Program-made: the position numbers and the translations under genes | Notes under the pieces: model-generated | What the model saw: the letters and a program-made list of their open reading frames with translations, nothing else | The model's database searches: none | What the model was told of the DNA's origin: nothing | Shown: piece after piece, positions 43,343 to 63,700 of the stretch | Layout of the letters: each line of letters begins with the position of its first letter | How positions within the stretch are numbered: the stretch's first letter is position 1 | Assembly: GCF_013315695.1 (NCBI RefSeq) | Contig: NZ_CP054353.1 | Strand: one strand, 5' to 3' | DNA from: Escherichia coli | GTDB taxonomy: Bacteria; Pseudomonadota; Gammaproteobacteria; Enterobacterales; Enterobacteriaceae | Length of the DNA: 64,000 bases

Positions 43343-44515
43343 ATGCGTCTGTTTTCTATTCCTCCACCCACGCTACTGGCGGGGTTTCTGGCGGTATTAA
43401 TTGGCTACGCCAGTTCAGCGGCAATAATCTGGCAAGCAGCGATTGTCGCCGGAGCCACCACTGCACAAATCTCTGGCTGGATGACGGCGCTGGGGCTGGC
43501 AATGGGCGTCAGTACGCTGACTCTGACATTATGGTATCGCGTACCTGTTCTCACTGCATGGTCAACGCCTGGCGCGGCTTTGTTGGTCACCGGATTGCAG
43601 GGACTAACACTTAACGAAGCCATCGGCGTTTTTATTGTCACCAACGCGTTAATAGTCCTCTGCGGCATAACGGGACTCTTTGCTCGTCTGATGCGCATTA
43701 TTCCGCACTCGCTTGCGGCGGCAATGCTTGCCGGGATTTTATTACGCTTTGGTTTACAGGCGTTTGCGAGCCTGGATGGTCAATTTACGTTGTGTGGCAG
43801 TATGTTGCTGGTATGGCTGGCAACCAGGGCCGTTGAGCCGCGCTATGCGGTAATTGCCGCGATGATTATTGGGGTCGTGATCGTTATCGCGCAAGGTGAC
43901 GTTGTCACAACTGATGTTGTCTTTAAACCCGTTCTCCCCACTTATATTAGCCCTGATTTTTCGTTTGCTCACAGCCTGAGCGTTGCACTCCCCCTTTTTC
44001 TGGTGACGATGTCATCGCAAAACGCACCGGGTATCGCAGCAATGAAAGCAGCCGGGTATTCGGCTCCTGTTTCGCCGTTGATTGTGTTTACTGGATTGCT
44101 GGCACTGGTTTTTTCCCCTTTCGGCGTTTATTCCGTCGGTATTGCGGCAATCACCGCGGCTATTTGCCAAAGCCCGGAAGCGCATCCGGATAAAGATCAA
44201 CGTTGGCTGGCCGCTGCCGTTGCAGGCATTTTCTATTTGCTCGCAGGTCTGTTTGGTAGTGCCATTACCGGGATGATGGCTGCCCTGCCCGTAAGTTGGA
44301 TCCAGATGCTGGCAGGTCTGGCGCTGTTGAGTACCATTGGCGGCAGTTTGTATCAGGCGCTGCATAATGAGCGTGAGCGCGACGCGGCGGTGGTGGCATT
44401 TCTGGTAACGGCAAGTGGATTGACGCTGGTCGGGATTGGTTCTGCGTTTTGGGGATTAATTGCCGGAGGCGTTTGTTACGTGGTGTTGAATTTAATCGCT
44501 GACAGAAACCGATAA
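43343..44515 (+). CDS. ydcO: BenE-family benzoate-type membrane transporter
   Basis: Start MRLFSIPPPTLLAGF inside track ORF; about 390 aa. Confidence 0.85.
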   Translation: MRLFSIPPPTLLAGFLAVLIGYASSAAIIWQAAIVAGATTAQISGWMTALGLAMGVSTLTLTLWYRVPVLTAWSTPGAALLVTGLQGLTLNEAIGVFIVTNALIVLCGITGLFARLMRIIPHSLAAAMLAGILLRFGLQAFASLDGQFTLCGSMLLVWLATRAVEPRYAVIAAMIIGVVIVIAQGDVVTTDVVFKPVLPTYISPDFSFAHSLSVALPLFLVTMSSQNAPGIAAMKAAGYSAPVSPLIVFTGLLALVFSPFGVYSVGIAAITAAICQSPEAHPDKDQRWLAAAVAGIFYLLAGLFGSAITGMMAALPVSWIQMLAGLALLSTIGGSLYQALHNERERDAAVVAFLVTASGLTLVGIGSAFWGLIAGGVCYVVLNLIADRNR

Positions 44516-44518
44516 TAA

Positions 44519-44541
44519 AAAGCGCCATCTAACGATGGCGC
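44519..44541. terminator. Hairpin between convergent ydcO and ydcL
   Basis: gcgccatc-taac-gatggcgc. Confidence 0.5.
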
Positions 44542-44549
44542 GGCTGGAA

Positions 44550-45218
44550 TTACTTTTTGTTAACGTCAAACATGGTGGCATCGGTCGCCATGTCATCAAT
44601 AACTTGTTTAATATTTTCGAAAGCCATTGGCGTACTTTCGTTATTCAGGTCTTTACCTTCGCCCTGACGAACGACTTTGATAACCGGTTTATTAGTCGCT
44701 GCATCAATCAGCTCACCTTCAAAATAGAGGCGAGTATCCATGGTACGGTGGCCTGTAGCCATTTGCGTCCCCGCAACCACTAATGCAACAGGAACCACTT
44801 CATAGAATTGCAGCCCTTCTTTGCTGGTATCTACACCGGTAATGGCCCCACGGAAAATCAGACTACGCGGCCCAGCGGTGGTAACCAGTGGTTTACGCTG
44901 CGCTATCGCTTCTTTCATTTCGGTGTTGGTATAGTTCAAAATTTTATCCAGAACTTTCTGCCCTACCTGGGTAGAAGGTTTTGGTACCGGATAATAAGTG
45001 ATTGGGTTCCAGACGATGCTGTCATATTTGCTTTGATCAAAACTCGGGTCTACCCAACGTAAAACAGGTTTACCTGTTGCTGAGGTTGTTTCTTTTAAAT
45101 CAGAGTAATTGTTTAAAAAACCAGAATATTTATCTGGCTGGGTGATTTTAGAGGCACAACCAGACAGAGCCAACAAGCCGCATAAAGCTGCAACTTTCGC
45201 AAATGATGTGGTACGCAT
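44550..45218 (-). CDS. ydcL: Lipoprotein (DUF3313)
   Basis: 222 aa, lipobox LALSGC. Confidence 0.85.
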   Translation of the reverse strand: MRTTSFAKVAALCGLLALSGCASKITQPDKYSGFLNNYSDLKETTSATGKPVLRWVDPSFDQSKYDSIVWNPITYYPVPKPSTQVGQKVLDKILNYTNTEMKEAIAQRKPLVTTAGPRSLIFRGAITGVDTSKEGLQFYEVVPVALVVAGTQMATGHRTMDTRLYFEGELIDAATNKPVIKVVRQGEGKDLNNESTPMAFENIKQVIDDMATDATMFDVNKK

Positions 45219-45520
45219 GAATAGTTTCCTGAGATGATTATATTACTTTTTAAGTTATAGCAAAAAGCACCGCTTCGTGTTGTGGCAAAAAAAGTGTTGG
45301 TGAAAATAAATTTTTCAGCCCCTTTTCAGACGACATAGTCAATGCCGAAAAAGGGGCTAAGTCAATCATCAGTAGTTAAATATCAGTGCGTTAATCTGAT
45401 GAAAAACTTCGACTACCGTGATTAATTTCACATCCTTTTGATTAAAAATATGCTTACCGAAAAGAAGAACAGTAAACCATCTCAGCGTGGGGAATTTTCA
45501 CGCGCTTTGTTCTTACCGGA

Positions 45521-46114
45521 TCATTTTTTACGTGCCAGCATCGTGGCGAAACGCAGTTTAATACGATTACCGTTGGCGTCGGTGCGGTGCAGCTCGCCGA
45601 CGTCTTCATTGTATTTCACCCTCTCCCAGCCTTCGTAATATCGACGTAATTCTCCCTCTTTGAAGGCAAACGGGAAGCCGACGGTACATGGATAATCAGC
45701 GGTATCCATCGCCGCCACAATCAGGTTGTAACCACCAGGTTTAGTGCAACGTTGCATATTGGCAATCAGCCCTGGGATGGTTTTAGCCTCAAGGAACATC
45801 AGCACCACAGTCGAAAGAATAAAATCGTACTGTCCATCAAATGTGAGGTTATTCAGATCAACGACCCGAGTGTGTAAATTATCCAGATTTTCAATAGATT
45901 TAATGCGCTCAACGTTGGCGATACTCATGGCATTTTTATCCCATGCGTCAACATCATAACCATTGGCTGCCAGGTAAAGACTGTTACGACCATTGCCACA
46001 GCCCAGATCCAGCGTTTTACCCGGTTTAACCACTTTCACCGATTCCAGTACTTCAGAGTGTGTGCGGGTTAATTCATATTTATCAGTAAAATAGTTTTCG
46101 TCACGAATGATCAT
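45521..46114 (-). CDS. tehB: Tellurite methyltransferase
   Basis: 197 aa SAM-dependent methyltransferase. Confidence 0.9.
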
Positions 46115-47103
46115 TCTTTGTCCTCTGCTTTCATTAAAACGGCGCGCTCGGTTCTGACTAACAATTTTCCCTGCATCAGAAGCGCAAAAGTACGGATGAG
46201 CAGTATTGCAATAATAAAATTGGTAAAGATAAACAGCGGCACCGCCAGCGTATGGAAAAATCCATTATCGCTGCCACTCCCCAGATGCAAACCGGTGGTT
46301 GCCAGTGCAGATACGCCGAACGAGAAACTCCAGAATGAAGCATTAAATGGCTGGGAGAGATACCATGGCATCAGACGTAGCATAAACAGCAGTTGCAGCA
46401 GTCCATAACCGAAAAGCATTTTCGCCAGCGTGTCACCCTCGCCGCCGTTGACGCTCAGCCAGGCACTACAGGCCACCAGCGCAGGAGCGAGCTGAATGCC
46501 GAGTGATGTCCTCAGTGCCGTGGGTAATTCTCCCGAACTGCGCAGACGCTGCAAGATCACCGGTTCCAGGCTTAGCCATGAGAAAACGCCTGCGCCTAAA
46601 AACACCAGACCGGCGTCGGTGTAGCCCAACGCACCACAGGCCATTGCGCTGATAAAGTTGTTGGCAACTGTCGGCAGATACAGTCCAGGCGTGGTAGCTT
46701 CTTCAGGGTGAGATCCGCGCCATAATCCCGCAGTTTGCCAGGCGGCATAAGCCAACTGAACCACGACACCAAAACTGAACAGGCACACCGCCAGTGGGCG
46801 AAACCACGGAACAAAACCAATCGCCACCAGCATCGTCGTTGCCGGAAACAAACTCACAAAACTGCTCAGCACTGGATGGCGCACTTCTGCCAGCACGCTA
46901 TGCGGAAAGCGTATGAGTCGGGTAATAAATGCGCCAGTCAATAATCCCCAGATGATCATCGCCAGAATCACCAGCCCATCCCCCAACCAGTGGCTGACCT
47001 GCCAAACCTGGCTGGCATAGCGCCAGGCAAATCCCATCCCTATCGTCCCCAACACAATACCAAAGTAGCCTGCCGGCAAATTGAGCACTTTATCGCTCTG
47101 CAT
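46111..47103 (-). CDS. tehA: Tellurite resistance / dicarboxylate-type membrane transporter
   Basis: Start [15 protein letters not shown] inside track ORF; 330 aa; ATGA overlap with tehB. Confidence 0.9.
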
Positions 47104-47226
47104 CTTCTTACTCATTTTGTTTAATTTATAAAGTATATTTGAAATGCATTTTATGGAATTTTCTCGAGCATAGCCAGAGCCGCAGAATTTGCTACGGTTA
47201 TAGTAAGTCACCTGTGGGAAAACGCT

Positions 47227-48207
47227 ATGCGCAAATATCGTCTAAGTGAAGAACAGCGAGCCTTTAGTTATCAGGAAGATGGCACTAAAAAAAATGTGTT
47301 ATTACGGCAGATTATCGCCATTAGCGATTTTAACGATGTGATAGCAGGAACCGCTGGCGGCTGGATCGATCGCGAAACGGTGTTAGCACAGGAAGGAAAT
47401 TGCTGGATTTACGACCAGAATGCTATTGCGTTCGGCGGAACGGTGATTTCCGGGAATACGCGTATCACCGGCACCAGCGTGCTGTGGGGAGAGGTTTACG
47501 CAACGGATAATGTCTGGATCGATAATAGTGAAATCAGCCAGGGTGCATATATAAGTGACAGTGTCACCATTAGTGACTCATTAGTTTGCGGTCAATGTAG
47601 AATATTTGGTCACGCCTTAATTGATCAACATTCTATGATCGTCGCCGCACAAGGCTTAACGCCCGACCATCAACTCCTGCTACAAATTTATGATCGCGCG
47701 AGGGTTAGCGCCTCGCGGATTGTCCACCAGGCACAAATTTATGGCGATGCCGTCGTCCGGTATGCTTTTATTGAACATCGCGCCGAAGTTTTTGATTTTG
47801 CCAGTATTGAGGGTAATGAAGAGAACAACGTCTGGCTATGCGATTGTGCTAAAGTCTACGGTCACGCGCAGGTGAAAGCTGGCATAGAAGAAGATGCCAT
47901 TCCGACGATTCATTACAGTTCGCAGGTGGCGGAATATGCCATTGTGGAAGGTAATTGTGTGTTAAAACATCATGTCTTGATTGGCGGAAATGCCGTGGTA
48001 CGTGGCGGACCGATTCTGCTCGACGAGCACGTTGTCATACAAGGTGAGAGCCGTATTACAGGTGCGGTGATAATTGAAAACCATGTGGAGTTAACCGACC
48101 ACGCCGTCGTTGAAGCCTTTGATGGCGACACGGTTCATGTCCGTGGTCCAAAAGTCATTAACGGCGAGGAGCGCATTACGCGAACGCCGCTGGCAGGGTT
48201 ATTGTGA
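47227..48207 (+). CDS. ydcK: Hexapeptide-repeat protein
   Basis: 326 aa. Confidence 0.85.
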
Positions 48208-48738
48208 ATCGATAATACGCGCGTATAAGTTCACATCATCATAGGCATCATTCAGAAACTCAGCCTGTTTCAGGCAACCTTCAAGGATAAAACCATTGCG
48301 CAAAGCGACCTGGTTGCTTTGCGGATTGTCCACCCGACATTTGATCACGAAGCGTCTAAGTTCACCAGACTGAGCGTAATGATGAATCAATGCCTGCAGC
48401 GCCTGAGAAATGATCCCCTGCCCCTGATGAGATTCGTCCAGCCAGTAGCCGATTTCAGCGGTTTTATTCAGTGGTTCAATACGATTAAACGAGATAACGC
48501 CGATAAGTTCATCTTCTTTGAAAATCATGAACATTTTGGCATATCCGCGTTGATGCAACATTACATTGCCCTGCACCGTTTTTCGCGTGTCCTCTTCACT
48601 TTGAACAAACTGCGGCCAGTTTAGCGACTGCTGTAGCCAGGTTCTATTTTTACAGATTAACTGATAAAGAGGTGTGACATGACTTTCTGCAACAGCATGT
48701 AATTCAAGTGATTCACTTACTTTTATCGTTTCGGTCAT
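48199..48738 (-). CDS. rimL: Ribosomal protein L7/L12 serine acetyltransferase
   Basis: Start [13 protein letters not shown]; 179 aa; 3' ends of ydcK and rimL overlap. Confidence 0.88.
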
Positions 48739-48800
48739 CTTATCTCCAGTCACTCCATGCAGTTGTTAAAAAAGCCGCCTGGCTGGCGGCTTAGGAAAGT

Positions 48801-49025
48801 TTACACCTCTTTGACGCTCTCCTGCTGCAGGATTTTGAGCATCTCATCTTTTAACTGTAGCTTTTGTTTTTTCATGCGGACCACTTCCGCATTGTACCCT
48901 CGACCGTCGGAACCTTCCTTTCTGGCAATTTCATGATCAAGTTTATTGTGTTTATCGAACAAGGACATAAAGCGAGGATTTTCGTTTTTCAGACGGGATA
49001 TTAAATCTCGATATTCTGGAAACAT
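48801..49025 (-). CDS. ydcH: Small protein DUF465
   Basis: about 74 aa. Confidence 0.8.
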   Translation of the reverse strand: MFPEYRDLISRLKNENPRFMSLFDKHNKLDHEIARKEGSDGRGYNAEVVRMKKQKLQLKDEMLKILQQESVKEV

Positions 49026-49164
49026 ACGCACTCCCTGTTAGTGGCTGACAAGGTGTATCTGAAATACACACCATCAGATTACTCATTTAACTTAGGGAAA
49101 AATGCGAGCGGGATCGTGTTTAACCAGACGGCACCTCCCGAAGAAGGTGCCGAAGAAAAAACGA

Positions 49165-50820
49165 TTAACTCATCACGCGGTCGTCAACATACTGACGTTT
49201 ATCGGGCGCTGGCGGGAAATACTGATACAGCCATGTTTCACTGATAGCGTCGCCCTGACAACGCAGATACATCCGCATATCGACCGGATCAGTGGAGTCC
49301 GAAGTCGGATACCAGTCAAACTGAATACGATAACCATCAATGGGTTCAATATAGAGAATTTCGATTTGCTTCGCTTCCCCACTGGAAAGCGTAATCACCG
49401 GCTCAATGCCTTTTGGCGCGGCAGCTTTCAGATCACCACCAACGAAATCGACGGCAAAACGACGCGCCCATTTTTCGGGATAGTGTTCACCTGGAGCCCA
49501 ACCTTCCGGGAAACCACCCATGCCGGTACGCGTCGCCATAACGCGCGCTAATGGGCAATGAACAGGCGGTTGCGCACTCCAGTACAGACGATACTGGAAT
49601 GCAAACTCATCACCCGCTTTTACAGCTTTTTCTGGCTGCCAGAAGCAGACAATGTTATCCAGCGTTTCGCCCGTTGTTGGGATTTCCATCAGGCCGATGG
49701 TGCCCTTACCCCACTTGTTACGCGGTTCCACCCACAGACTTGGGCGTTTGTTATACCAGCCCATAATGTCCTGATAATGGGAGAAATCACGATCCAGTTG
49801 CAATAAACCAAACCCTTTCGGGTTGTTGTCGGTGTAAGCATTGAACTGCAATTTTTGCGGATTGTTCAGCGGACGACAAATCCACTCGCCGTTGCCCCGC
49901 CACATGGACAAACGATCAGAGTCATGGATTTGCGGATGAATGGTGTCGCACATCCGACGTTCATTAGTACCGCAGCTGAACATACTGGTCATCGGCGCAA
50001 TGCCCAGCTGTTTAATGTCTTTGCGCGCATACAGGTGATTTTCCACATCCATAATCACCTGACTTTTCTCGCAATGGATAGTGAACTTATAGGCACCAGT
50101 AATGCTGGCGCTATCGAGCAACGCATAAACGGTAAAGGTGGTTGCCCCCGGTTTTACCGTATCAAACCAGAAGGCGGTAAAGTCGGGGAACTCTTCTTTA
50201 CTGTCGGTGTAAGTGTCGATCGCCAGGCCGCGAGCCGATAGACCGTATTGATATGTGTCGTCAACGGCGCGGAAATAACTCGCACCGAGGAATGATACGA
50301 CATCACGGCGCGCCAGTTCGGGGGCTTTAAACACGCGAAAACCGGCAAAACCGAGATCGCTTTGCCCTTCTAATTGTTTGGTATCAACACCCGCATCGTT
50401 GTATTTGAACAACTCCGGGCGAAAGTGAATTTCACGCGCCAGATGTGTTGCGGGATCTACAGAAAACATACGAACGCGGCGACGGAATCCCATTCCCATA
50501 TGGAAGAACTGAGCGTCCAGTTGACGGTTCTCAACGTTATGCCAGAGCGATTTTTCGGCGTCGTATTGAATACTGTTATAAGCCTGCGGCGTCATTGTCG
50601 CCAGAGTGTCAGGTAACGGACGCGGCGCACCACGCCACGCTGTTTGCGCTAAGTCGTGCGCCATTGACTGTAGAATGGAGAAGTCAAAACGCTGGGTTTG
50701 CCCGTCGGCAATATCAGAATCTGCCGCGAATGCCGCCTGAGAAAAAAGAGAAGCAATGCCGCTGGTACCGCACACGGCGGCCATAGCCATTGAACCTTTA
50801 ATAAATCGTCTACGATCCAT
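49165..50820 (-). CDS. opgD: Osmoregulated periplasmic glucan biosynthesis protein D
   Basis: 551 aa with Tat signal [15 protein letters not shown]. Confidence 0.9.
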
Positions 50821-51044
50821 ACCTGAAAGTGAGTCCTTCTGGTGTTGTGAATGGTCCCGCGCTGAACGTTTTCAGCGGCAAGAAAGTGCTTATTTATGAC
50901 CGCTCACTCTAGACAATATTTATTAATAATCCAATTGTTGAACTGAGAGAATATGCATAAATCGGCAATTTTTTTATGTCGATGGGATGAGCCTGATTCG
51001 TTTGTAAAATCAGGCAAATTTTTGCAAAGGCGGATGGTCAGAAT

Positions 51045-52388
51045 TTAAAGCAAACCACAGCGACGTTTACTGCGTTCTTCCGCTTCCTGATAAAGCTGGA
51101 ACTCATCCAAAACCGGGCAGCCCAACGCCTGCTCAAATGCTTCGCGACTGGCATTACCGTGACTGCGTGCCTGCGTTTCATTACCCAGATTTGACTGGAA
51201 GATCCCCGCCGCGCTAACAGGCAAGAAATCTTCATAGGTAATGGGTTGCGCCACTACCCAACCACGTTCAATTAAGGGCTGTGGATCGTCTCCGGGATGA
51301 ATCGCCTGACGATGCGCCTCACCTGAAGGCGTCAGACGGTACCGGAACCATGCCAACCCTTGCTGACGCATTAAAAACTCACTGTCAGGAAAAGTGCGGA
51401 AGGTTTCCTGTAAATGCATTTGGTGAGTGAGATTATCCTGCCCGGTTCCAGCGTTCCGCAGTAGATCATCATACAGTTGTCGTCCTTTCGGCGTTAATGC
51501 CACGCCACGCTGCTCTATTTCACCAAAGCGCGCGGTATGCGTGCCCTGTTTCTGCCCTGCAAACAACACCGTCTCTTCCAGTGCTTTAAAGCTGGTCTGG
51601 CGTAGTAAAATAGGTACCTCGCGGCGCGGCGGCCCTTCGATCAGAATTTTGGGTTCAATCCCGCATTCAGGCATCATCGACTGCACCCGGTCAATATCCA
51701 GCGTACGTGGCGTCAGGTGGTTGATATGGCATCCAGGAAAACAGACCACATCAGCAATCAACCGATGTTCGTTGTGCAAGGCGCGATAGGTTTCTTCATC
51801 TACCGTTGCTGACTGGTGCCAACGAAACGTTTCCAGGGCTTCCTGCACAAACTCCTGTGCCTGTGTTTCGTTAAAACCGCCCCGCTGCTCATACTCCTCT
51901 AACAGTTGTCGACAACGTGGGGTGAAGATATCGCGCTGACGCAGAATCTCCGCCGCTTTCTGGCGCAAAAATTCGTTCTCGATAAGCTCAAGGCGGAGTA
52001 ATGAGGTAAAAACGCGGAAGGGATTACGCGCCAGAGAAGCATCATCAATGGGCCGAAATGCTGTGGAATGTACCGGCACTCCCGCCTGCGAGAGATCGTA
52101 ATAGCTCACCGGGTACATCCCCATAATGGCAAACATCCGCCGAAGAGTAGCAAGCTCTTGTGCAGTCCCAACACGAATCGCCCCATGACGTTCAACATTC
52201 AGTCGCGCCAGCTCGTCTGCATTTACCATTTTTTCGTGCAGTTGAGGATTGTTTTCCAGCACAGCCAGATTCACATCAGCTACCAGTTCCAGCAGCGTGC
52301 CGTACTGCGGAACTTCTTGCTGGTACATGGCTGACATTGCCTGCGAAAACTGTTCCCGAATCTCATCCGCCGTGATGCTGTTCGCCAT
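51045..52388 (-). CDS. ydcJ: Uncharacterised protein (DUF1338 family)
   Basis: 447 aa, synteny. Confidence 0.85.
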   Translation of the reverse strand: MANSITADEIREQFSQAMSAMYQQEVPQYGTLLELVADVNLAVLENNPQLHEKMVNADELARLNVERHGAIRVGTAQELATLRRMFAIMGMYPVSYYDLSQAGVPVHSTAFRPIDDASLARNPFRVFTSLLRLELIENEFLRQKAAEILRQRDIFTPRCRQLLEEYEQRGGFNETQAQEFVQEALETFRWHQSATVDEETYRALHNEHRLIADVVCFPGCHINHLTPRTLDIDRVQSMMPECGIEPKILIEGPPRREVPILLRQTSFKALEETVLFAGQKQGTHTARFGEIEQRGVALTPKGRQLYDDLLRNAGTGQDNLTHQMHLQETFRTFPDSEFLMRQQGLAWFRYRLTPSGEAHRQAIHPGDDPQPLIERGWVVAQPITYEDFLPVSAAGIFQSNLGNETQARSHGNASREAFEQALGCPVLDEFQLYQEAEERSKRRCGLL

Positions 52389-52604
52389 AGTGTCTGCCTC
52401 CAGTGGTCAGTAATCTGGAGTGTAGGTAACCGCATTCACTCCGGCGGGAAGAATTTACAAACTGTGATCTCGCCGCGAAAACATCAATATTATCCATTTT
52501 GCTGTAACATAATTGCTTTAATTGTTAATAATATTTTGCAATCAAGTTATCATAATCAAACAACTTCACTTGTCAGCGACACCGCTTCGTTTTTAACATC
52601 GCTT

Positions 52605-53528
52605 ATGGAAAAAAATAGTCTGTTTAGTCAGCGCATCCGTTTGCGCCACCTTCATACATTCGTAGCTGTCGCACAACAAGGAACTTTGGGGCGCGCGGCT
52701 GAAACCCTTAATTTGAGTCAACCTGCGCTCTCTAAGACATTGAATGAACTGGAGCAGCTGACGGGCGCTCGCTTGTTTGAGCGTGGTCGTCAGGGGGCGC
52801 AACTTACCTTACCCGGCGAACAATTTTTAACGCATGCAGTCAGAGTTCTTGACGCCATCAACACTGCTGGACAGTCGCTTCATCGTAAAGAAGGTCTTAA
52901 TAATGATATCGTCAGGGTTGGTGCACTACCTACTGCGGCACTGGGGATATTACCTTCGGTTATAGGTCAGTTTCATCAGCAACAAAAAGAGACGACCTTG
53001 CAAGTTGCGACAATGAGTAACCCTATGATTCTGGCGGGTTTAAAAACCGGGGAAATCGATATCGGCATTGGTCGGATGTCAGATCCTGAACTGATGACCG
53101 GGCTTAATTACGAACTGCTGTTTCTTGAATCGCTGAAGCTGGTTGTCCGCCCCAATCATCCGCTACTTCAGGAGAACGTAACGCTAAGCCGGGTGCTGGA
53201 ATGGCCGGTCGTTGTATCACCAGAAGGCACTGCGCCACGCCAGCATTCAGATGCATTAGTGCAGAGCCAGGGATGTAAAATTCCTTCGGGTTGTATCGAA
53301 ACGCTGTCTGCTTCGCTATCTCGTCAACTTACGGTTGAATACGACTACGTGTGGTTTGTCCCTTCTGGCGCTGTAAAAGACGACCTGCGTCATGCCACGC
53401 TGGTGGCCCTGCCTGTTCCGGGACATGGTGCAGGCGAACCGATTGGAATACTGACCCGCGTAGATGCGACGTTCTCTTCTGGTTGCCAGTTGATGATTAA
53501 CGCTATTCGAAAATCAATGCCGTTCTGA
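52605..53528 (+). CDS. ydcI: LysR-family transcriptional regulator
   Basis: Start MEKNSLFSQRIRLRHLHTF inside track ORF; 307 aa. Confidence 0.88.
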   Translation: MEKNSLFSQRIRLRHLHTFVAVAQQGTLGRAAETLNLSQPALSKTLNELEQLTGARLFERGRQGAQLTLPGEQFLTHAVRVLDAINTAGQSLHRKEGLNNDIVRVGALPTAALGILPSVIGQFHQQQKETTLQVATMSNPMILAGLKTGEIDIGIGRMSDPELMTGLNYELLFLESLKLVVRPNHPLLQENVTLSRVLEWPVVVSPEGTAPRQHSDALVQSQGCKIPSGCIETLSASLSRQLTVEYDYVWFVPSGAVKDDLRHATLVALPVPGHGAGEPIGILTRVDATFSSGCQLMINAIRKSMPF

Positions 53529-53566
53529 AAGGTGAAGGGATCTGTCGATCCCTTCCTTGAACATTT

Positions 53567-55207
53567 TCACACCGTAGCGAAACTAACTGGTTCACCCGCT
53601 CCGCGAGGTTCTGCCGACACAGTATGTTTGTTCAGACGGAATACGTCCACCGCCTCAGTTAATCGTGCCGCCTGTTCTTCAAGGGACACCGCCGCCGCTG
53701 AGGCCTCTTCTACCAGAGAAGCATTCTGTTGCGTCACCTTATCCATTTCAGAAATCGCCTGGCTAACCTGCGTTATGCCTCTACTTTGTTCATCCGAGGC
53801 GGCGGCGATTTCCTGCATGATATGTGTGACACTCGCGACGGCATCAACAATAGTGCTCATGGTTTTCCCTGCCGTTGCCACCTCATCCGACCCCAGGTCA
53901 ATTAACCTGACTGATTCACTGATCAAGCCTTCAATCTCTTTCGCCGCCTGAGCGCTGCGGCTTGCGAGTGTCCGTACTTCGCTGGCGACAACGGCAAATC
54001 CACGTCCTTGCTCACCCGCTCGCGCGGCTTCAACGGCAGCATTCAGTGCCAGAATATTCGTCTGGAAAGCAATACTGTTGATGACGGCGGTGATCTCGGA
54101 AATTTTCTTCGAACTCGTGGAGATAGCGCCCATCGTTTTTACTACACCGGAAACCGTCTGCCCGCCATCGCTGGCTTTAATAGAAGCCTCCTGCGCCAGT
54201 TTGCTGGCATGATGCGCGTTATCTGCATTCTGTTTCACCGTCGCAGTGAGTTGCTCCATGCTGGCGGCAGTTTGTTCAATTGCCGCCGCTTGTTCTTCGG
54301 TGCGAGATGAAAGGTCCGCATTGCCAGCGGAAATTTCGCTGGTGCCACGATAAATCTCTTCCGCGCCCTGTCGAACGGTCCCTACAGTCATCCCCAGTGA
54401 ATGCTGCATTTGCTGTAAATGACGACTTAAGCGACCGATTTCATTACGACCCGCCGGTTCATCATTCATCGTCAGATCGCCACTGGCGATTTTTTCAATC
54501 CGTTGTGCGGCATGTTGCAGTGGACGAATGACGATCCGACGTAGCACTATAAATGTTATCAGCGTCATGACCAGGGCAAGCACAAACGCGCCAATCATGA
54601 ACATCCCACCCAGGCGGGTGCGCTGATGGGCCAGTTCCGCCAGTTGGTTGGCTCTGGTGCTACGTATCTTAACGGCTTTGCTCAAAATATCGGTATAAGC
54701 ATTATCCAGCGGTCGGATCTGCTCACTTTCATGATTGATAATCGCTTCAAACATGCCATTTTTGGCATATTTCAACATCGGTTGCATACCCGTGATATAA
54801 GCCTGGAAGCGTTGATTTAATTCAGTGTCGAGGGCTTCATCAGCAGGTGTTTTCACCGACCGATTCTGATAAGCACGATAACCTTGCTGCGACTGTTTAA
54901 TCTCCGATTCGGCTTGCGCAATATTTCGCTTCATTGCTTCCATTTCCGCAATACGACTCGCTGCCCCGGCCTGAATCATATTGATCCGGGCTGAACGCAA
55001 AAAATCTGAACTGTTCGCTAACCCGGTCCGAATCTCAATCTCCGCAGTAACATCACGCTGATCGCGATCGGCCTGCCAGAGGAAATAGCCAGCCAGAGCA
55101 GAACTTAATGCGAATAGAACTAAGATACCGCCAAGAATGCAGGCAAATAACGGAACCAGCCTGATGTGATGCAAAAAACCTAATCGCTGTGAGGGAGTTG
55201 TATTCAT
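53567..55207 (-). CDS. trg: Methyl-accepting chemotaxis protein III (ribose/galactose sensor)
   Basis: 546 aa, HAMP and MCP signalling domain. Confidence 0.9.
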
Positions 55208-55246
55208 TACCGTTGTCTCTCGTCCAGGTTTACTCCTGATAGAAAG

Positions 55247-55273
55247 TCATCGGCACTTGACGGTAATTACTTA
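55247..55273 (-). promoter_or_regulatory. Putative sigma-28 (FliA) promoter for trg (TAAGTAAT-N11-GCCGATGA)
   Basis: Match to TAAAGTTT-N11-GCCGATAA about 40 nt upstream of trg start. Confidence 0.45.
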
Positions 55274-55479
55274 TGACCAAAAACCTCTTTGCGTCACATT
55301 TTTACAACAATTATGGCAGAGAAGAATAATGCCATTGGAATGAAGAGAGTAACGAACGGCTAAACCGAATGACGAAAAATTCTGGAAAACAGCACGCAAT
55401 TTCGTCAAGTGATTATTTTCGTCCCTAAGGAAACCTCATAGGATGCCTGCGGGTGCCTGAGACTTTCTGTTTTCAGGCT

Positions 55480-55538
55480 AACCGGGAATCAGAAAGACGA
55501 AGGCCCCGACCGATATTTCTATCAACCGAGGCCAACGA

Positions 55539-55550
<12 letters not shown>
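55480..55550 (-). ncRNA. sokB: sokB antisense RNA (approximate extent); promoter -35 TTGCCG / 17 bp / -10 TATGAT on minus strand at about 55557..55585
   Basis: Near-consensus sigma-70 promoter reading antisense into mokB start region, as in hok/sok loci. Confidence 0.45.
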
Positions 55551-55746
<196 letters not shown>

Positions 55747-55809
55747 GGGCAAGCGCGGGGATTTTCCCCGCGCATCTGACTAGCGGATTCATTTTCTCAT
55801 GGCACCCCT

Positions 55810-55983
55810 TTTACACTTCAGTTAGTACATGTTTTTTTCGATGCACTAATAGAACCATCATTACAGACAAATTTGCCGCCTGCCGTACAGTGTGAGATTC
55901 CCCCTTTCGAACCAGAACAGGGTTTGCGCCCGGCATCGGCATAAAAGGAAACAAGCGTTCCCATAACCAAGATAAGTGCCAGT
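55810..55983 (-). CDS. ydcA: Small secreted Cys-rich protein
   Basis: 57 aa MKKLALILVMGTLVSFYADAGRKPCSGSKGG... Confidence 0.75.
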
Positions 55984-56161
55984 TTTTTCATATAACCTCC
56001 ATGGTTTATCGAATCTTATGTTCGATTTGAACGTTATACGCTGGTTTATTTTGATACCGTTGATGAGATCAAAGATCGGGTGAATTGATTAAAGATAAGC
56101 CAGATGGACGTATAGACAAGGATTATGGTTTTATTTGTCATACAAATAAATATAATAGGCG

Positions 56162-56226
56162 CTTCCGATGTAGGCCCGTATTCTTCGCCTGTACCACGGG
56201 TCGGTTTTAGTACAGGCGTTTTCTTT
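56162..56226 (+). ncRNA. rydC: RydC-like Hfq-dependent sRNA
   Basis: cttccgatgtaggcccgtattcttcgcctgtaccacgggtcggttttagtacaggcgttttcttt: 5' seed then hairpin gcctgtac/gtacaggc plus U-run; in the ydcA-cybB gap. Confidence 0.6.
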
Positions 56227-56235
56227 AAATATCCT

Positions 56236-56766
56236 TCAGGAACGTTTACGCGGCATCATGCGTAGAAGTGTGTTGTCCTTCCAGAAATAGTGGTGTGCCA
56301 GTGCAGCCGCAGCGTGCAACCCGATGACAAAATATCCCAGATTCGCCAGCGTTTCATGCCACGACTTTAAGCTATCAACCCGTTCGAAATTGGCCTCTGA
56401 AGCGTAAGGCATCGTCATACCAAACGCAAACCACGGGTTGCCCCGGTTATACATCATCACCAAACCAATCACCGGCAGCGCAATAAACAGGAGATAAATC
56501 ACCAAATGGCCCAAATGCGCCAGTCCCGTCATCATCGGTTTTGGCTTAGGTATAATCGGCGGGGTTGGGTATTTCAGCCTTAACAAAAGACGAACCACCA
56601 TCAGTACGAGAATTGAGATGCCACAGGAAACATGAATCATGTTGATGAGGGGCCGATCGCTACGTGGGAAGAAACCACGAAACTCCATTGCGCAATACGC
56701 TGCGATAACCAGCAAAAAGACCAGCCAGTGAATGCTGATTTGTAACCTTGAGTATTTATTTTCCAT
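56236..56766 (-). CDS. cybB: Cytochrome b561
   Basis: Start MENKYSRLQISIHWLVFLLV inside track ORF; 176 aa. Confidence 0.9.
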   Translation of the reverse strand: MENKYSRLQISIHWLVFLLVIAAYCAMEFRGFFPRSDRPLINMIHVSCGISILVLMVVRLLLRLKYPTPPIIPKPKPMMTGLAHLGHLVIYLLFIALPVIGLVMMYNRGNPWFAFGMTMPYASEANFERVDSLKSWHETLANLGYFVIGLHAAAALAHHYFWKDNTLLRMMPRKRS

Positions 56767-56954
56767 AACATTTCCTGCTTTAAAACAATTTGCCGTTAAC
56801 ATAACGGGCTTTTCTCAAAATTTCATTAAATATTGTTCACCCGTTTTCAGTACGTTACGTTTCACGGCAAGAATGTAGATTGCCCATCCCGCCATCCTGG
56901 TCTAAGCCTGGAAAGGATCCATTTTCATCCGAACGTTCCTGACAGGAGAAGACC

Positions 56955-57956
56955 ATGAGTAAAGTTGGTATTAACGGTTTTGGTCGTATCGGTCGACTGG
57001 TGTTGCGTCGATTACTTGAAGTCAAAAGCAACATAGACATTGTCGCTATTAATGATCTCACTTCCCCAAAAATTCTCGCCTACCTGCTGAAACATGATTC
57101 AAACTACGGACCGTTCCCCTGGAGCGTTGATTTTACGGAAGATTCACTTATCGTTGATGGGAAAAGTATCGCGGTTTACGCCGAAAAAGAGGCTAAAAAT
57201 ATTCCGTGGAAAGCGAAAGGCGCAGAAATCATTGTCGAATGTACTGGCTTTTATACCTCCGCCGAGAAATCGCAGGCGCATCTCGATGCTGGCGCGAAGA
57301 AGGTGTTGATTTCCGCCCCTGCCGGTGAAATGAAAACTATCGTTTATAACGTCAATGACGACACTCTGGATGGCAACGATACCATTGTTTCCGTGGCGTC
57401 ATGCACCACTAACTGTCTTGCACCGATGGCCAAAGCCTTGCACGACAGTTTCGGAATAGAAGTCGGCACGATGACGACCATTCATGCCTATACCGGCACT
57501 CAGTCACTGGTGGATGGTCCGCGAGGTAAAGATCTACGCGCTTCACGTGCAGCGGCAGAAAATATCATTCCCCACACTACAGGTGCGGCAAAAGCCATTG
57601 GTCTGGTGATCCCGGAACTGAGCGGCAAACTGAAAGGTCATGCGCAACGCGTGCCGGTGAAAACAGGTTCGGTCACTGAGCTGGTGTCCATTCTCGGAAA
57701 AAAAGTGACTGCCGAAGAGGTGAATAACGCACTTAAACAAGCAACCACCAATAACGAGTCATTTGGTTATACCGATGAAGAAATAGTCTCTTCCGATATC
57801 ATTGGCAGCCATTTCGGTTCGGTGTTTGATGCCACGCAAACGGAAATTACCGCCGTGGGCGATTTACAACTGGTGAAAACGGTCGCCTGGTACGATAACG
57901 AATATGGCTTCGTCACACAGCTCATTCGCACCCTCGAAAAATTCGCTAAACTCTGA
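56955..57956 (+). CDS. gapC: Glyceraldehyde-3-phosphate dehydrogenase C, intact
   Basis: 333 aa, NAD-binding [10 protein letters not shown] and catalytic SCTTNCLAP motifs, uninterrupted. Confidence 0.9.
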
Positions 57957-57963
57957 CGCACAC

Positions 57964-57987
57964 AGGCGGAGGAAAAAACCTCCGCCT
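57964..57987. terminator. Hairpin between convergent gapC and aldA
   Basis: aggcggagg-aaaaaa-cctccgcct. Confidence 0.45.
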
Positions 57988-57997
57988 CTTCCACTCA

Positions 57998-59437
57998 TTA
58001 AGACTGTAAATAAACCACCTGGGTCTGCAGATATTCATGCAGGCCATGTTTACCATCTGCGCCGCCAATACCGGATTTACGCCATCCGGCGTGGAAGCCT
58101 TGCATAGCTTCGAAGTTTTCACGGTTGATGTAAGTTTCACCAAACTTCAGCCCTTTAATGGCTTTCATCGCGACGTTCAGATTTTGGGTATAGATTGATG
58201 AGGTCAGGCCGTAATCACTATCATTCGCCATTGAGATAGCCTCTTCCAGCGTATCAAATGCGACCACCGGCAGAACCGGGCCAAAGGTTTCCTCATGCAT
58301 AATCGACATTTCCTGGCGAACATCCAGCAGCAATGTCGGCGGATAATAATATCCTTTCCCCTCTACCGCTTTGCCACCCAACGCCACTCTCGCCCCTTCT
58401 TCTACTGCGCGCGCCACTTTTTGCTCAACCCTTTCCAGCGCCGCGGCGTTAATCAACGGTCCCATCGCAATGTCGTTGCGTTCAGCGGGGTTACCAAATT
58501 GAACCGCTTGCATCGCTTCACCCAACCGATTGACAAACTGATCATAAATGCCTTTCTGTACATAAACACGTTCTGCACAGTTACACACTTGCCCACTATT
58601 AATGACGCGTGAATCAACGATGGCTTTGACTGCCAGTTCAAGATCGGCATCGTCCATTACGATAGCCGGTGCTTTACCCCCCAGTTCCAGGCACACTTTG
58701 GTGATGTTTTTCGCCGCAGTCGCCATAATCTTTTCACCTGCAGAGACGCTGCCTGTCATACTGACCATTGCGACCTTTGGGTTACCCGCCAGTTCTTGCC
58801 CAACGGTTTCACCACGCCCCAGAACAAGGTTAAACACGCCGCGCGGAAGGCCTATTTCATCGACGATTTTGGCGAATGCAATCGCATTGTTTGGCGTAAA
58901 TTCACTGGGTTTAATGACGATGGTATTACCGGTCAAAAGAGCGGGAGCCATTTTGCGGGCAATGAGGAAGAACGGGAAGTTCCACGGCAGAATGCCGGTA
59001 GTCACGCCAAGCGCACGTTTAAACAGAAGAATATTTTCTCCTGGACGATCGCTTTGAATAATCTCGCCTTCATAACGCCGTGCCCACTCCGACATGTAAT
59101 CGATATAGTCCGCAGTAAAAGCCACTTCGACTTCAGCCAGCTGCTGGATCTTACCCCCTTCTTCAACAATCAGCGCACTGATTTCACTGGCGCGTTCGCG
59201 GATCCCGGCGGAGATTTTGCGCAACCAACTGGCGCGTTCAATAGCAGGCAACGCTTCCCATTCTGGTTGTGCACGTTCTGCTGCATCGATTGCCTTACGG
59301 ACATCCTCGGCCTGACCATCGGGAATGCGGGAAATGACAGCCTCTGTTGCAGGGTTTACCACATCAATCCATGCGTCTCCACGCCAGGTAACAAACTGTC
59401 CATCAATATACATAGGATGTTGAACGGGTACTGACAT
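57998..59437 (-). CDS. aldA: Lactaldehyde dehydrogenase
   Basis: 479 aa aldehyde dehydrogenase starting MSVPVQHPMYIDGQFVTW. Confidence 0.9.
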   Translation of the reverse strand: MSVPVQHPMYIDGQFVTWRGDAWIDVVNPATEAVISRIPDGQAEDVRKAIDAAERAQPEWEALPAIERASWLRKISAGIRERASEISALIVEEGGKIQQLAEVEVAFTADYIDYMSEWARRYEGEIIQSDRPGENILLFKRALGVTTGILPWNFPFFLIARKMAPALLTGNTIVIKPSEFTPNNAIAFAKIVDEIGLPRGVFNLVLGRGETVGQELAGNPKVAMVSMTGSVSAGEKIMATAAKNITKVCLELGGKAPAIVMDDADLELAVKAIVDSRVINSGQVCNCAERVYVQKGIYDQFVNRLGEAMQAVQFGNPAERNDIAMGPLINAAALERVEQKVARAVEEGARVALGGKAVEGKGYYYPPTLLLDVRQEMSIMHEETFGPVLPVVAFDTLEEAISMANDSDYGLTSSIYTQNLNVAMKAIKGLKFGETYINRENFEAMQGFHAGWRKSGIGGADGKHGLHEYLQTQVVYLQS

Positions 59438-59633
59438 GAGCGACTCCTGTGATTTATATGTTTGTTTTTAGTAAATACATTGTTAATTAACATCAATCAT
59501 CAGAGAGACGGCATCATGAAAGGACAATTCTGTGAAGGGCTTCATAAAAACAAGTGTAAAAGGAATAAGAGGCAGAAATAAAAGGCAGGAGTTATGCCCG
59601 TTTGCAAACAAGTGGTTCACAAACGGGCAATTT

Positions 59634-60434
59634 TTAACGTAACGAGCGACTTTCCATCGCCTCGATGAGCACCGCATCGTGTTTCAGCGTTTGCCATGCC
59701 TGGATGACTTCTGCCGGAAAATCAACGTGAACGATAAAATCTCGCCCGCGGGGACCGTAGCCATCGCTATCATCGTGTAAACGCGGCAGCTCGCCAGTGA
59801 GTAGTGATAGATAACGCTCAACCGGCCATAATCCTTGTAACTGATTAATAAAGATTACACTGTCTGCGTTATTTCCTAACTGAGGAACGAATCCGGGATA
59901 ACTTAACCAGCGTGGTGCATCGGGATTGTCCCCGGTCATACGGCGGAACGTCGCCATCGTGCGCCGCTGCATGGTGGGGTCCTGAACAACGATAGCTGTG
60001 TGAACTCGTTCTACGGCCTGATTCAATAGCGCGATGCTAAAGCGTGCGTTTTCACCGCAGTTTGTTGACTGGTCTTCAATCCAGATTTTTTCATGCGGAA
60101 TGTGCCAGAACTGATGAGCGATATCCGCCAGGATGGTAGCTTCAGCTCTGCCAGTGGTGCGGATAGTGTTGTAGTGCGGATGCTGTGCGATGGCGCTATA
60201 CAAAAAAGTTGTCGAGTGACCGATACCACCACTAATCAGTAAAGGAATTTGCTGATCGCGGGCAATCTTACATGCCGCATCGATAGTCGGCATAACCGCA
60301 TTGCCTGCAAGGATCACGCAATCGGCCTGATACGGCACCTCACCGGAGAAATCATCCTGCGCCAGCCACTGACCGATAACATTTATGGCATCTATGGTTG
60401 CCGGCGAAAGCGTCGGAAACGGGGTAATGTTCAT
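59634..60434 (-). CDS. ydcF: DUF218-family protein
   Basis: 266 aa, synteny. Confidence 0.85.
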
Positions 60435-60637
60435 GGTTCCTCCTTATCGTTCCCTTAAGAATACTGCGTGAGATAATAGTGAGAAGCGGAGCACTCTGAA
60501 AGGAGGAAGTCGTATTTCCTTAACTACCACTCCGCAAGCCTGACATATCTTTTAAGGAAATGCTGTAGATAAACATTATTCATCTTGCAGCAGAGAATTG
60601 TATTTTTCTGAACTCCTGAATTTTTTCCCATACCGTT

Positions 60638-60670
60638 TTTAGAATTAATAAAAAACCCGGCGCTAAATGC
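60638..60670 (-). terminator. Rho-independent terminator downstream of hrpA
   Basis: Minus strand aacccgg...ccgggtt followed by TTTTTTATT. Confidence 0.5.
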
Positions 60671-60706
60671 TTACCGGGTTTTAGATTTATCAGGCAAATA
60701 GCAGTG

Positions 60707-63700
60707 TTAACCGCTAATCTGCTCCATCGCCTGCAAAATACGCTTATCTGAAATCGGATAAGGCGTACCAAGTTGTTGAGCGAAGTAACTAACGCGCAAC
60801 TCTTCTATCATCCAACGGATCTCTTTCACGTCTTCATCCTCACGACGTGCGGGCGGCAGTTTGTTGATCCATTGCTGCCACGCCTGCTGGACGTTTTCGA
60901 CTTTCAGCATCTGAGCACGGTCACGATGCGGATCAACCGCCAGTTTTTCCAGTCGTTTTTCAATCGCCTGCAAATAACGCAGCGTGTCGCCCAACCGTTT
61001 GAAGCCGTTACCAGTGACAAAACCGCGATATACCAACCCGCCCATCTGCGCTTTAATGTCAGAAAGCCCCAGCGCCATAGTCATATCCACCCGCCCTTTC
61101 AGACGTTTATTGATATTGAACACCGCAGTGAGGATTTGCTCGACCTGCTTCGCAATATCCACCACCGTGTCGTTCAGTTCAGCACGGACTTTTTCATGCA
61201 GCGCAGCAAAGCCTTCTTCCGTCCAGACCGGGCCACCATTGGCGTCGATCAGTTGATCCACCCCGCAGGAGATACAGTCGTCGATCAGCTCCAGCACTTT
61301 GCCATACGGGTTAAAGTACAGCCCCAGCTTGGCTTTGTTCGGTAACTTTTCATGCAAATATTTGATCGGCGATGGAATATTCAGCAGCAGTAGACGGCGA
61401 AGACCGTTCCACATTGCCTGCTTTTGTTCCAGCGGATTATCAAACAATTTGATTGCCACACTGTCGCGTTCATCCACCAGCGCTGGCCACGCCTTCACTT
61501 TATAGTTGCCACGCTTCTGTTCGTAGCTTTCCGGCAGCTGACCAAAACTCCAGATATGTAAGCCGCTCTGCTCGATACCGTCATCCGCCACCGCAGACAG
61601 CGTTTCCTGCACTTTGCCTTTCAGCGCATCTTTCAGATCTTGTAGAGAGCGCCCTTCTTTTAGCTTCTTGTTTTTGTCATCCACCACGCGGAAGGTGATT
61701 TTCAGGTGATCAGGCACCTGATCCCAGTGCCAGTCTTCGCGGTCAACGGTAACACCGGTCATCCGCCGTAACTCGCGCTCAAGACTGTCGAGCAACGGTA
61801 ACTCCAGCGGTTTGACGCGGCCTAAAAACGCTTCGGCATAGTTTGGCGCAGGTACAAAATTACGGCGTACCGGTTTCGGCAACGATTTAATCAGAGCAAT
61901 CACCAGTTCGCGGCGCAGGCCGGGGATTTGCCATTCAAACCCGCTCTCTTCTACCTGATTAAGCAGCGGCAGCGGGATATGCACAGTCACACCGTCAGCA
62001 TCCGCGCCGGGCTCAAACTGATAGCTCAAACGCAGCTTGAGATTGCCCTGATGCCAGAAGTTCGGATAATCCAGCTTGCTGATTTTTTCCGCCCCTTCTT
62101 TGATCAACATGCTCTTTTCAAAGTTGAGCAAATCAGGCGTTTCGCGGCTGACTTTTTTCCACCAGCTATCGAAGTGACGAGCGGAGATTACATCGTGGCG
62201 GATGCGCTGGTCGTAGAACTCAAACAACGTTTCGTCATCAACCAGAATATCGCGGCGACGTGATTTGTGTTCCAGCTCTTCCACTTCGGCCCGCAGTTTC
62301 AGGTTTTCACGGAAGAATGCGTGACGCGTCTGCCAGTCACCTTCCACCAGAGCGTGGCGAATAAAGAGTTCACGACATAACGCCGGATCGATCTGGCTGT
62401 AGTTGACCTTGCGCGCAGCAACAATCGGCAAACCATAAACAGTGACTTTTTCCGTTGCCATCACCGCGCCCTGCGCCCGTTCCCAGTGCGGTTCGCTGTA
62501 GGTGCGTTTAATCAAATGCTGAGCAACGGGTTCTACCCATTCCGGGTCGATACGCGCAGCAATGCGCCCCCACAGGCGGCTGGTTTCTACCAGTTCCGCC
62601 ACCATTACCCATTTCGGCGGCTTTTTAAATAAGCCGGAACCGGGGAAAATGGAGAAACGCGCGTTACGTGCGCCGGTATATTCTTGTTTATCGGCATCTT
62701 TCATGCCGATATGGGAAAGCAAACCGGTCAGTAAGGCGATGTGAATTTCGCGATACTCCGCCGGTTCGCTGTTAACCGGAATGCCAAGTTCTTTCACTAC
62801 CTGACGCAACTGGGTGTAGATATCCTGCCATTCGCGCACGCGCAGATAGTTGAGATAATCGGTACGACACAGGCGACGGAAGGCGTTGGAAGAAAGCGCC
62901 TTTTGCTGCTCGCCAAGATAATTCCACAGATTTACAAACGCGAGGAAGTCGGATTCTTTGTCGTGGAAGCGACGATGTTTTTCGTCCGATGCCTGCTGTT
63001 TATCCATCGGACGCTCGCGCGGATCCTGAATGGAGAGCGCGGACGTGATAATCATCGCCTCACGCACGCAGCCATGTTTCTGCGCTTCCAGCACCATACG
63101 CGCCAGACGAGGATCGACAGGCAATTGCGAAAGCTGGCGACCGAGCGGCGTCAGTTTATAGGCGCTGGCCTGTTCATCCGTGGTGATCGCGCCCAGTTCT
63201 TCGAGCAGACGCACGCCATCCTGGATATTGCGTTTATCCGGTGCTTCAACAAACGGGAACGCAGCGATATCGCCCAGCCCCAGCGCAGTCATCTGCAAAA
63301 TAACCGAGGCCAGGTTGGTACGCAGAATCTCCGGATCGGTAAATTCCGGGCGCGAAAGGAAATCGTCTTCGGAATAGAGACGAATACAGATCCCTTCGGA
63401 CACACGACCACAGCGGCCTTTACGCTGATTGGCAGACGCCTGCGAAATGGGTTCAATCGGCAAACGCTGCACTTTGGTGCGATAGCTGTAGCGGCTGATA
63501 CGCGCTGTACCGGGGTCGATAACGTATTTAATACCCGGTACGGTCAGCGAGGTTTCCGCGACGTTGGTCGCCAGCACAATGCGCCGTCCACTGTGCGACT
63601 GGAAGACGCGGTTCTGTTCGCTGTTCGAAAGCCGCGCATAAAGCGGCAAGATTTCCGTATGGCGTAAGTTCAGCTTGTTCAGCGCATCGGCGGTATCGCG

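Follow-up and report, generated by a model that had tools for sequence, protein, structure and literature searches.

Does the gapC locus in the 64,000-nt stretch of Escherichia coli DNA analysed here (the window) encode a working glyceraldehyde-3-phosphate dehydrogenase (GAPDH), when the gene between the same neighbours in K-12 is a pseudogene? We put the probability at roughly 85% that the window holds the intact ancestral allele and that its product is a functional GAPDH, most likely a conditional second GAPDH driven by sigma-S.

The gapC reading frame and its product

The gene lies between a divergent and a convergent neighbour, with the following elements in order along the window:

56236–56766, minus strand: cybB (cytochrome b561), the upstream divergent neighbour, 531 nt, from the RefSeq annotation of the identical locus
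56767–56954, no strand assigned: cybB–gapC divergent intergenic region, 188 nt by the RefSeq cybB start, from the annotation of the identical MS 21-1 locus
56944–56948, plus strand: Shine–Dalgarno sequence AGGAG, read from the sequence, 6 nt upstream of the gapC ATG
56955–57956, plus strand: gapC coding sequence, ATG start, 333 codons and a TGA stop, intact in the ORF listing and the raw sequence
57964–57987, no strand assigned: hairpin with a 9-bp G+C-rich stem (AGGCGGAGG / CCTCCGCCT) and an AAAAAA loop, in the 41-nt gapC–aldA gap
57998–59437, minus strand: aldA (aldehyde dehydrogenase A), the downstream convergent neighbour, a 479-aa ORF annotated as aldA in MS 21-1 and K-12

The sequence-only reading had described an uninterrupted GAPDH frame of 333 residues with NAD-binding and catalytic-cysteine motifs, and it was correct in coordinates, length and motifs. 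The ORF listing and a reading of the raw sequence contain no internal stop in 56955–57956; a nucleotide recount, which the sequence-only reading had named as the place where a stop or frameshift might surface, found neither in the window gene. At 48.2%, the G+C content of gapC is similar to that of the whole window (49.4%).

The product matches TIGR01534, the model for type I GAPDH (EC 1.2.1.12), over profile positions 1–330 of 330, scoring 446.7 bits against a curated cut-off of 367.2 (E = 4.8e-134). Both Pfam domains are complete, PF00044 (Gp_dh_N) covering residues 3–102 (model 2–100 of 101) and PF02800 (Gp_dh_C) residues 155–313 (model 1–158 of 158). Given this E value and the full length of both domains, the family assignment is beyond chance. 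An NAD-binding motif occupies residues 5–14, with the GxGxxG Rossmann signature formed by G8-F-G10-R-I-G13, and Asp34, an acidic residue on which the preference of GAPDHs for NAD over NADP depends, is present. The active site comprises the SCTTNC motif (S149-C150-T151-T-N-C) and His177. Residues S149, T151, T180, T209, G210 and R232 are all found, and would constitute the Ps and Pi phosphate sites; this assignment presumably follows established GAPDH structures, with a shift of +1 from the Bacillus stearothermophilus numbering. Judged by these profiles and residues, GapC is an NAD-dependent, phosphorylating, bacterial type I GAPDH. In the proposed reaction, which is the standard one for GAPDHs, Cys150 would attack glyceraldehyde-3-phosphate (G3P), His177 would help hydride transfer to an NAD+ held by the Rossmann motif and Asp34, and phosphate would then cleave the thioacyl intermediate to release 1,3-bisphosphoglycerate (BPG).

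A near-identical enzyme has been crystallized. EcGAPDH1 (PDB 7C5F, with the related entries 7C5x/7C7K) aligns with window GapC over 333 of 333 residues with one substitution, position 29 being isoleucine in the window and valine in the crystallized protein. The two share Cys150, His177 and the NAD contacts Arg11, Ile12, Asp34, Ser120 and Asn315, which are those given in the structural paper (PMC8615399). That paper, by Zhang et al. (2021), calls the protein the 'type 1 GAPDH from E. coli' and does not use the name gapC (PMC8615399). GAPDH activity is therein published for the V29 variant, 332/333 identical to window GapC, with a KM of 0.73 mM for G3P and a high turnover; C150A is inactive, C150S and H177A lower activity several-thousand-fold, and complexes with NAD, G3P, BPG and the thioacyl intermediate were solved (PMC8615399). 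Section 3.1 of the same paper names Arg78 as an NAD contact, and residue 78 is a lysine in both the window protein and 7c5f. Since the 7c5f alignment shows no difference at this residue, the mismatch is probably a slip of numbering or wording in the paper.

Isoleucine 29 (codon 29, 57039–57041) sets the window allele apart from nine of nine other intact alleles, which, like 7c5f, have valine. It looks lineage-specific and is a conservative change, to which we attach no functional meaning.

K-12 lesions and the spread of intact alleles

In K-12, gapC (b1416/b1417, gapC_1/gapC_2) likewise sits between cybB and aldA. Aligned globally with its counterpart in the K-12 strain CETR2G40, the window gene shows 97.5% nucleotide identity, with 25 differences in 1,002 nt, both K-12 lesions included. 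On the strength of this identity and the shared cybB–gapC–aldA synteny, the window gene is assigned as the orthologue of K-12 gapC. The order of the three genes is the same in the window, K-12, MS 21-1 and all 12 further loci that we fetched, which were spread across the identity range.

Two lesions break the K-12 gene. One is an A>T substitution at nt 115, which converts codon 39 from AAA to TAA (K39*); the other removes one A from the run of seven at nt 738–744 (A7>A6). The RefSeq label on the K-12 CDS, 'frameshifted; internal stop', agrees with this. Where the sequence-only reading had 'a frameshift or stop' in K-12, the CETR2G40 alignment shows both. The window gene has neither K39* nor the A7>A6 frameshift, and in the alignments which that reading had proposed, with K-12 and with intact E. 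coli alleles, it is one of the intact ones.

Might the intactness itself be an artefact of assembly or reading, such as a miscounted homopolymer? The K-12 frameshift does fall in a run of A, where sequencing errors are typical. However, the K39* site is a substitution and not a homopolymer, the 1,002-nt form is the one found in most E. coli genomes, and window gapC is base-for-base the 'gap' CDS of E. coli MS 21-1 (WP_000048646.1, 100% identity, annotated as a non-pseudogene). The 20 kb around gapC, moreover, has 100% matches in three complete genomes of independent origin, so window gapC is not a sequencing artefact; we give that explanation practically no credence.

The nearest relatives of this 20-kb region are the human isolates MSB1_4I and MS 21-1 (100%), followed by SMS-3-5 (99.3%), which we take to be a phylogroup F strain. 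The allele group is among the less common ones, with at least 99% identity to window gapC in only 83 genomes. As a separate observation, the 20,001-nt query (window 44000–64000) spans ~21,446 nt in SMS-3-5-like genomes (H106), where it aligns in two pieces; this implies an insertion of ~1.4 kb in those genomes that is absent from the window.

Of the 5,426 complete E. coli genomes searched, 5,417 contain gapC DNA, nearly always at full length, and the window gene is 96.3–100% identical to its counterpart in 5,409. Exact matches to a 73-nt probe with the K-12 TAA haplotype occur in 1,152 of the 5,426 (~21%), and to the same probe with the window's AAA in 2,908, genomes matched by neither having other SNPs inside the probe. 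The K-12 A6 frameshift haplotype (90-nt probe) matches exactly in 1,035 genomes; all such probe counts are exact-haplotype lower bounds. In an evenly spaced sample of full-length matches, 8 of 39 were 1,001 nt long (~21%), consistent with the probe counts.

Nine of the 12 fetched loci are intact (HUSEC2011, A31, RM9245, PEC122, SI-NP020, O157:H7 Z1815, CFT073, SC434 and FDAARGOS_1295). The other three are broken in different ways: Ec-050 carries both K-12 lesions, Combat13F7 (L004, 301–1302) carries K39* without the frameshift, and ESBLEC_HM50 (L014, 301–1301) has a CFT073-like allele that has lost one nucleotide at about nt 268 (deltaG268), a lesion unrelated to those of K-12 and present in only 3 of the 5,426 genomes. 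Because Combat13F7 has K39* alone, the stop came first and the A-run frameshift later. K39* and the independent deltaG268 show that E. coli has lost a working gapC on more than one occasion.

Roughly three-quarters of sequenced E. coli therefore have an intact gapC. The collection over-represents laboratory derivatives of K-12, and intact copies are therefore probably even commoner in nature. At this locus K-12 belongs to a minority lineage, and the intact form is ancestral and common. The unusualness that the sequence-only reading had implied for an intact gapC was accordingly overstated, intact being the majority state and K-12 lying in the ~21% minority.

A plasmid-borne gapC, suggested by five E. 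coli matches labelled as plasmid, was considered and not accepted. The E. coli gapC records in PLSDB are 4.8–4.9 Mb or 252–385 kb long and non-mobilizable, and the entries H129–H133 (for example NZ_OL790696.1, 4.80 Mb, and NZ_CP141089.1, 4.94 Mb) appear to be mislabelled chromosomal replicons. Two Pantoea megaplasmids (~0.5 Mb) carry a gap gene that is 74% identical at the DNA level.

Selection, flanking elements and expression

Ten intact alleles, that of the window and nine from phylogenetically spread strains, were compared by the Nei–Gojobori method. Omega against the window ranges from 0.012 to 0.048 and is at most 0.074 for any pair, with a mean dS of 0.069; 45 of the 52 segregating sites fall at third codon positions, and 7 amino-acid positions vary. 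Intact gapC is under strong purifying selection across E. coli.

The flanks of the gene are conserved as well. The AGGAG Shine–Dalgarno sequence is unchanged in 14 of 14 aligned alleles, as is the stem of the hairpin at 57964–57987. This hairpin folds as RNA at −18.5 kcal/mol (z = −6.4; none of 200 shuffles as good) and is probably a transcription terminator shared by gapC and aldA. A terminator scan made no call here, the hairpin having no T-run and a clear U-tract being absent on both strands; the element may be a bidirectional terminator or one that acts in RNA stability.

Upstream, the gapC promoter is presumed to lie in the cybB–gapC intergenic region (56767–56954), with 7 differences from K-12 in its last 152 nt. 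The extent of this region depends on the cybB start: the longest cybB frame opens at 56802 and encodes 188 aa, and the RefSeq start at 56766 gives 176 aa (531 nt); the 12 additional codons would cut the intergenic region from 188 to 152 nt. We also considered a weaker promoter in the window, based on a sigma-S-like −10 element, TCTAAGC(C/T)T, ~47 nt upstream of gapC, with C in the window and T in K-12. The idea was dropped because C is the usual base among the 14 aligned alleles, T being confined to the K-12 record.

Published regulatory data are available for K-12. A ChIP-seq peak of E-sigma-S lies in the gapC_1/cybB intergenic region (PMC4447067), and in glucose-limited chemostats the RpoS ratio of gapC_1 is 5.6 (PMC4512719). 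That this regulatory evidence comes from K-12, with its 7 differences in 152 intergenic nucleotides, counts against the model. In the window strain, a sigma-S-dependent promoter in the cybB–gapC intergenic region may drive gapC under certain conditions.

One could object that the gene is intact and yet silent in the source strain, a cryptic copy that adds nothing to GAPDH activity in the conditions the strain meets, and for which a disabling mutation is simply still to come. A sigma-70 consensus scan of 56700–58100 found no promoter upstream of gapC; at least two independent losses in E. coli (K39* and deltaG268) indicate that the gene is dispensable in some lifestyles, and K-12 and its relatives, which lack a working copy, grow well. 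On the other hand, an omega of 0.01–0.07 at ~10% synonymous divergence is unlike an unexpressed gene, the Shine–Dalgarno sequence and terminator hairpin are invariant, and E-sigma-S binds at the promoter region in K-12 itself, where the gapC transcript also depends on RpoS. We consider silence unlikely, and favour a gene that is functional and conditionally expressed. That intact gapC is functional follows from the selection it is under, the biochemistry of the V29 enzyme and the conserved periphery of the gene. The earlier suggestion that the source strain may express a second GAPDH is likewise reasonable, because the catalytic and cofactor-binding residues are kept, a near-identical enzyme is active, purifying selection operates and the K-12 gene responds to sigma-S and RpoS. 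No second GAPDH paralogue was found within the 64,000-nt window, gapA being at another chromosomal locus.

Intact gapC in natural isolates has been on record for over 25 years, and the gene, its product and its context here are as expected. Such alleles were reportedly described by Espinosa-Urgel and Kolter in 1998, in Mol Microbiol 28:325. As relayed by papers that cite it, this work found gapC mutated in laboratory strains and intact in environmental isolates, and the gapC promoter activated in fresh water (Espinosa-Urgel and Kolter, 1998); one citing paper refers to it for an adaptive role in aquatic survival (PMC1796617). If these second-hand accounts hold, gapC would be preferentially active outside the host, in fresh water, and we infer that the source strain expresses it under sigma-S or freshwater conditions. 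Purifying selection maintains the gene in most lineages; in the K-12-like lineage it has decayed, first through K39* and later through the 1-nt deletion.

More tentatively, GapC may be a specialized GAPDH used away from the host, at low temperature or in stationary phase. The repeated losses of the gene, in steps through K39* and then the A-run deletion (about a fifth of complete genomes) and independently through deltaG268 (three genomes), would mark lineages that abandon that lifestyle, and the window lineage would keep the gene with a private I29. If true, this ecological reading would not be new in kind, the idea dating from 1998; only the population-scale picture of decay would be new.

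K-12 is the atypical strain at gapC, most E. coli encoding two phosphorylating GAPDHs. Metabolic models built on K-12, and assumptions about gapA essentiality, may not transfer to wild strains that express gapC. The correct annotation of the window gene is intact gapC (type I GAPDH), not a pseudogene.

GapC among related dehydrogenases

GapC could in principle be a specialized paralogue: an enzyme like Epd/GapB, an arsenate-detoxifying GAPDH coupled to ArsJ, or a protein that mainly moonlights at the surface or in secreted form. GapA already serves glycolysis, GAPDH paralogues of changed specificity exist, and GapC obtains partial scores with the Epd and ArsJ-associated models. Epd/GapB, the erythrose-4-phosphate dehydrogenase of gamma-proteobacteria, belongs to the same superfamily and is of similar length. 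Its models nevertheless score GapC well below their cut-offs (NF010058, 279.8 versus 539; TIGR01532, 276.5 versus 530.55), as does that of the ArsJ-associated GAPDH (NF033735, 307.3 versus 450), and the general type I GAPDH model is passed. No arsJ adjoins gapC, its neighbours being cybB and aldA, and the near-identical EcGAPDH1 turns over G3P efficiently and was crystallized with G3P and BPG. Specialization of this kind is very improbable, and we retain GapC as a second, phosphorylating GAPDH. A separate literature search on gapC or gapA and secretion in enterohemorrhagic strains found no paper.

E. coli GapA (PDB 1S7C, 1GAD, 1DC4) has the same fold and reaction as GapC, and the same SCTTNC and NAD-binding motifs. 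The two are distinct genes: K-12 GapA and window GapC share 47% identity (155/333), and the GapA-type equivalog NF011954 scores GapC at 301.9 bits against a cut-off of 662, which together rule out that the window gene is gapA. Their structural neighbours also differ. The nearest non-enterobacterial solved relatives of GapA are 4p8r and 4lsm, deposited as 'cytosolic' GAPDHs, and after 7c5f the next-best solved relatives of GapC are a different set, 6iqm, 8hmn, 7www and 5j9g (~480 bits).
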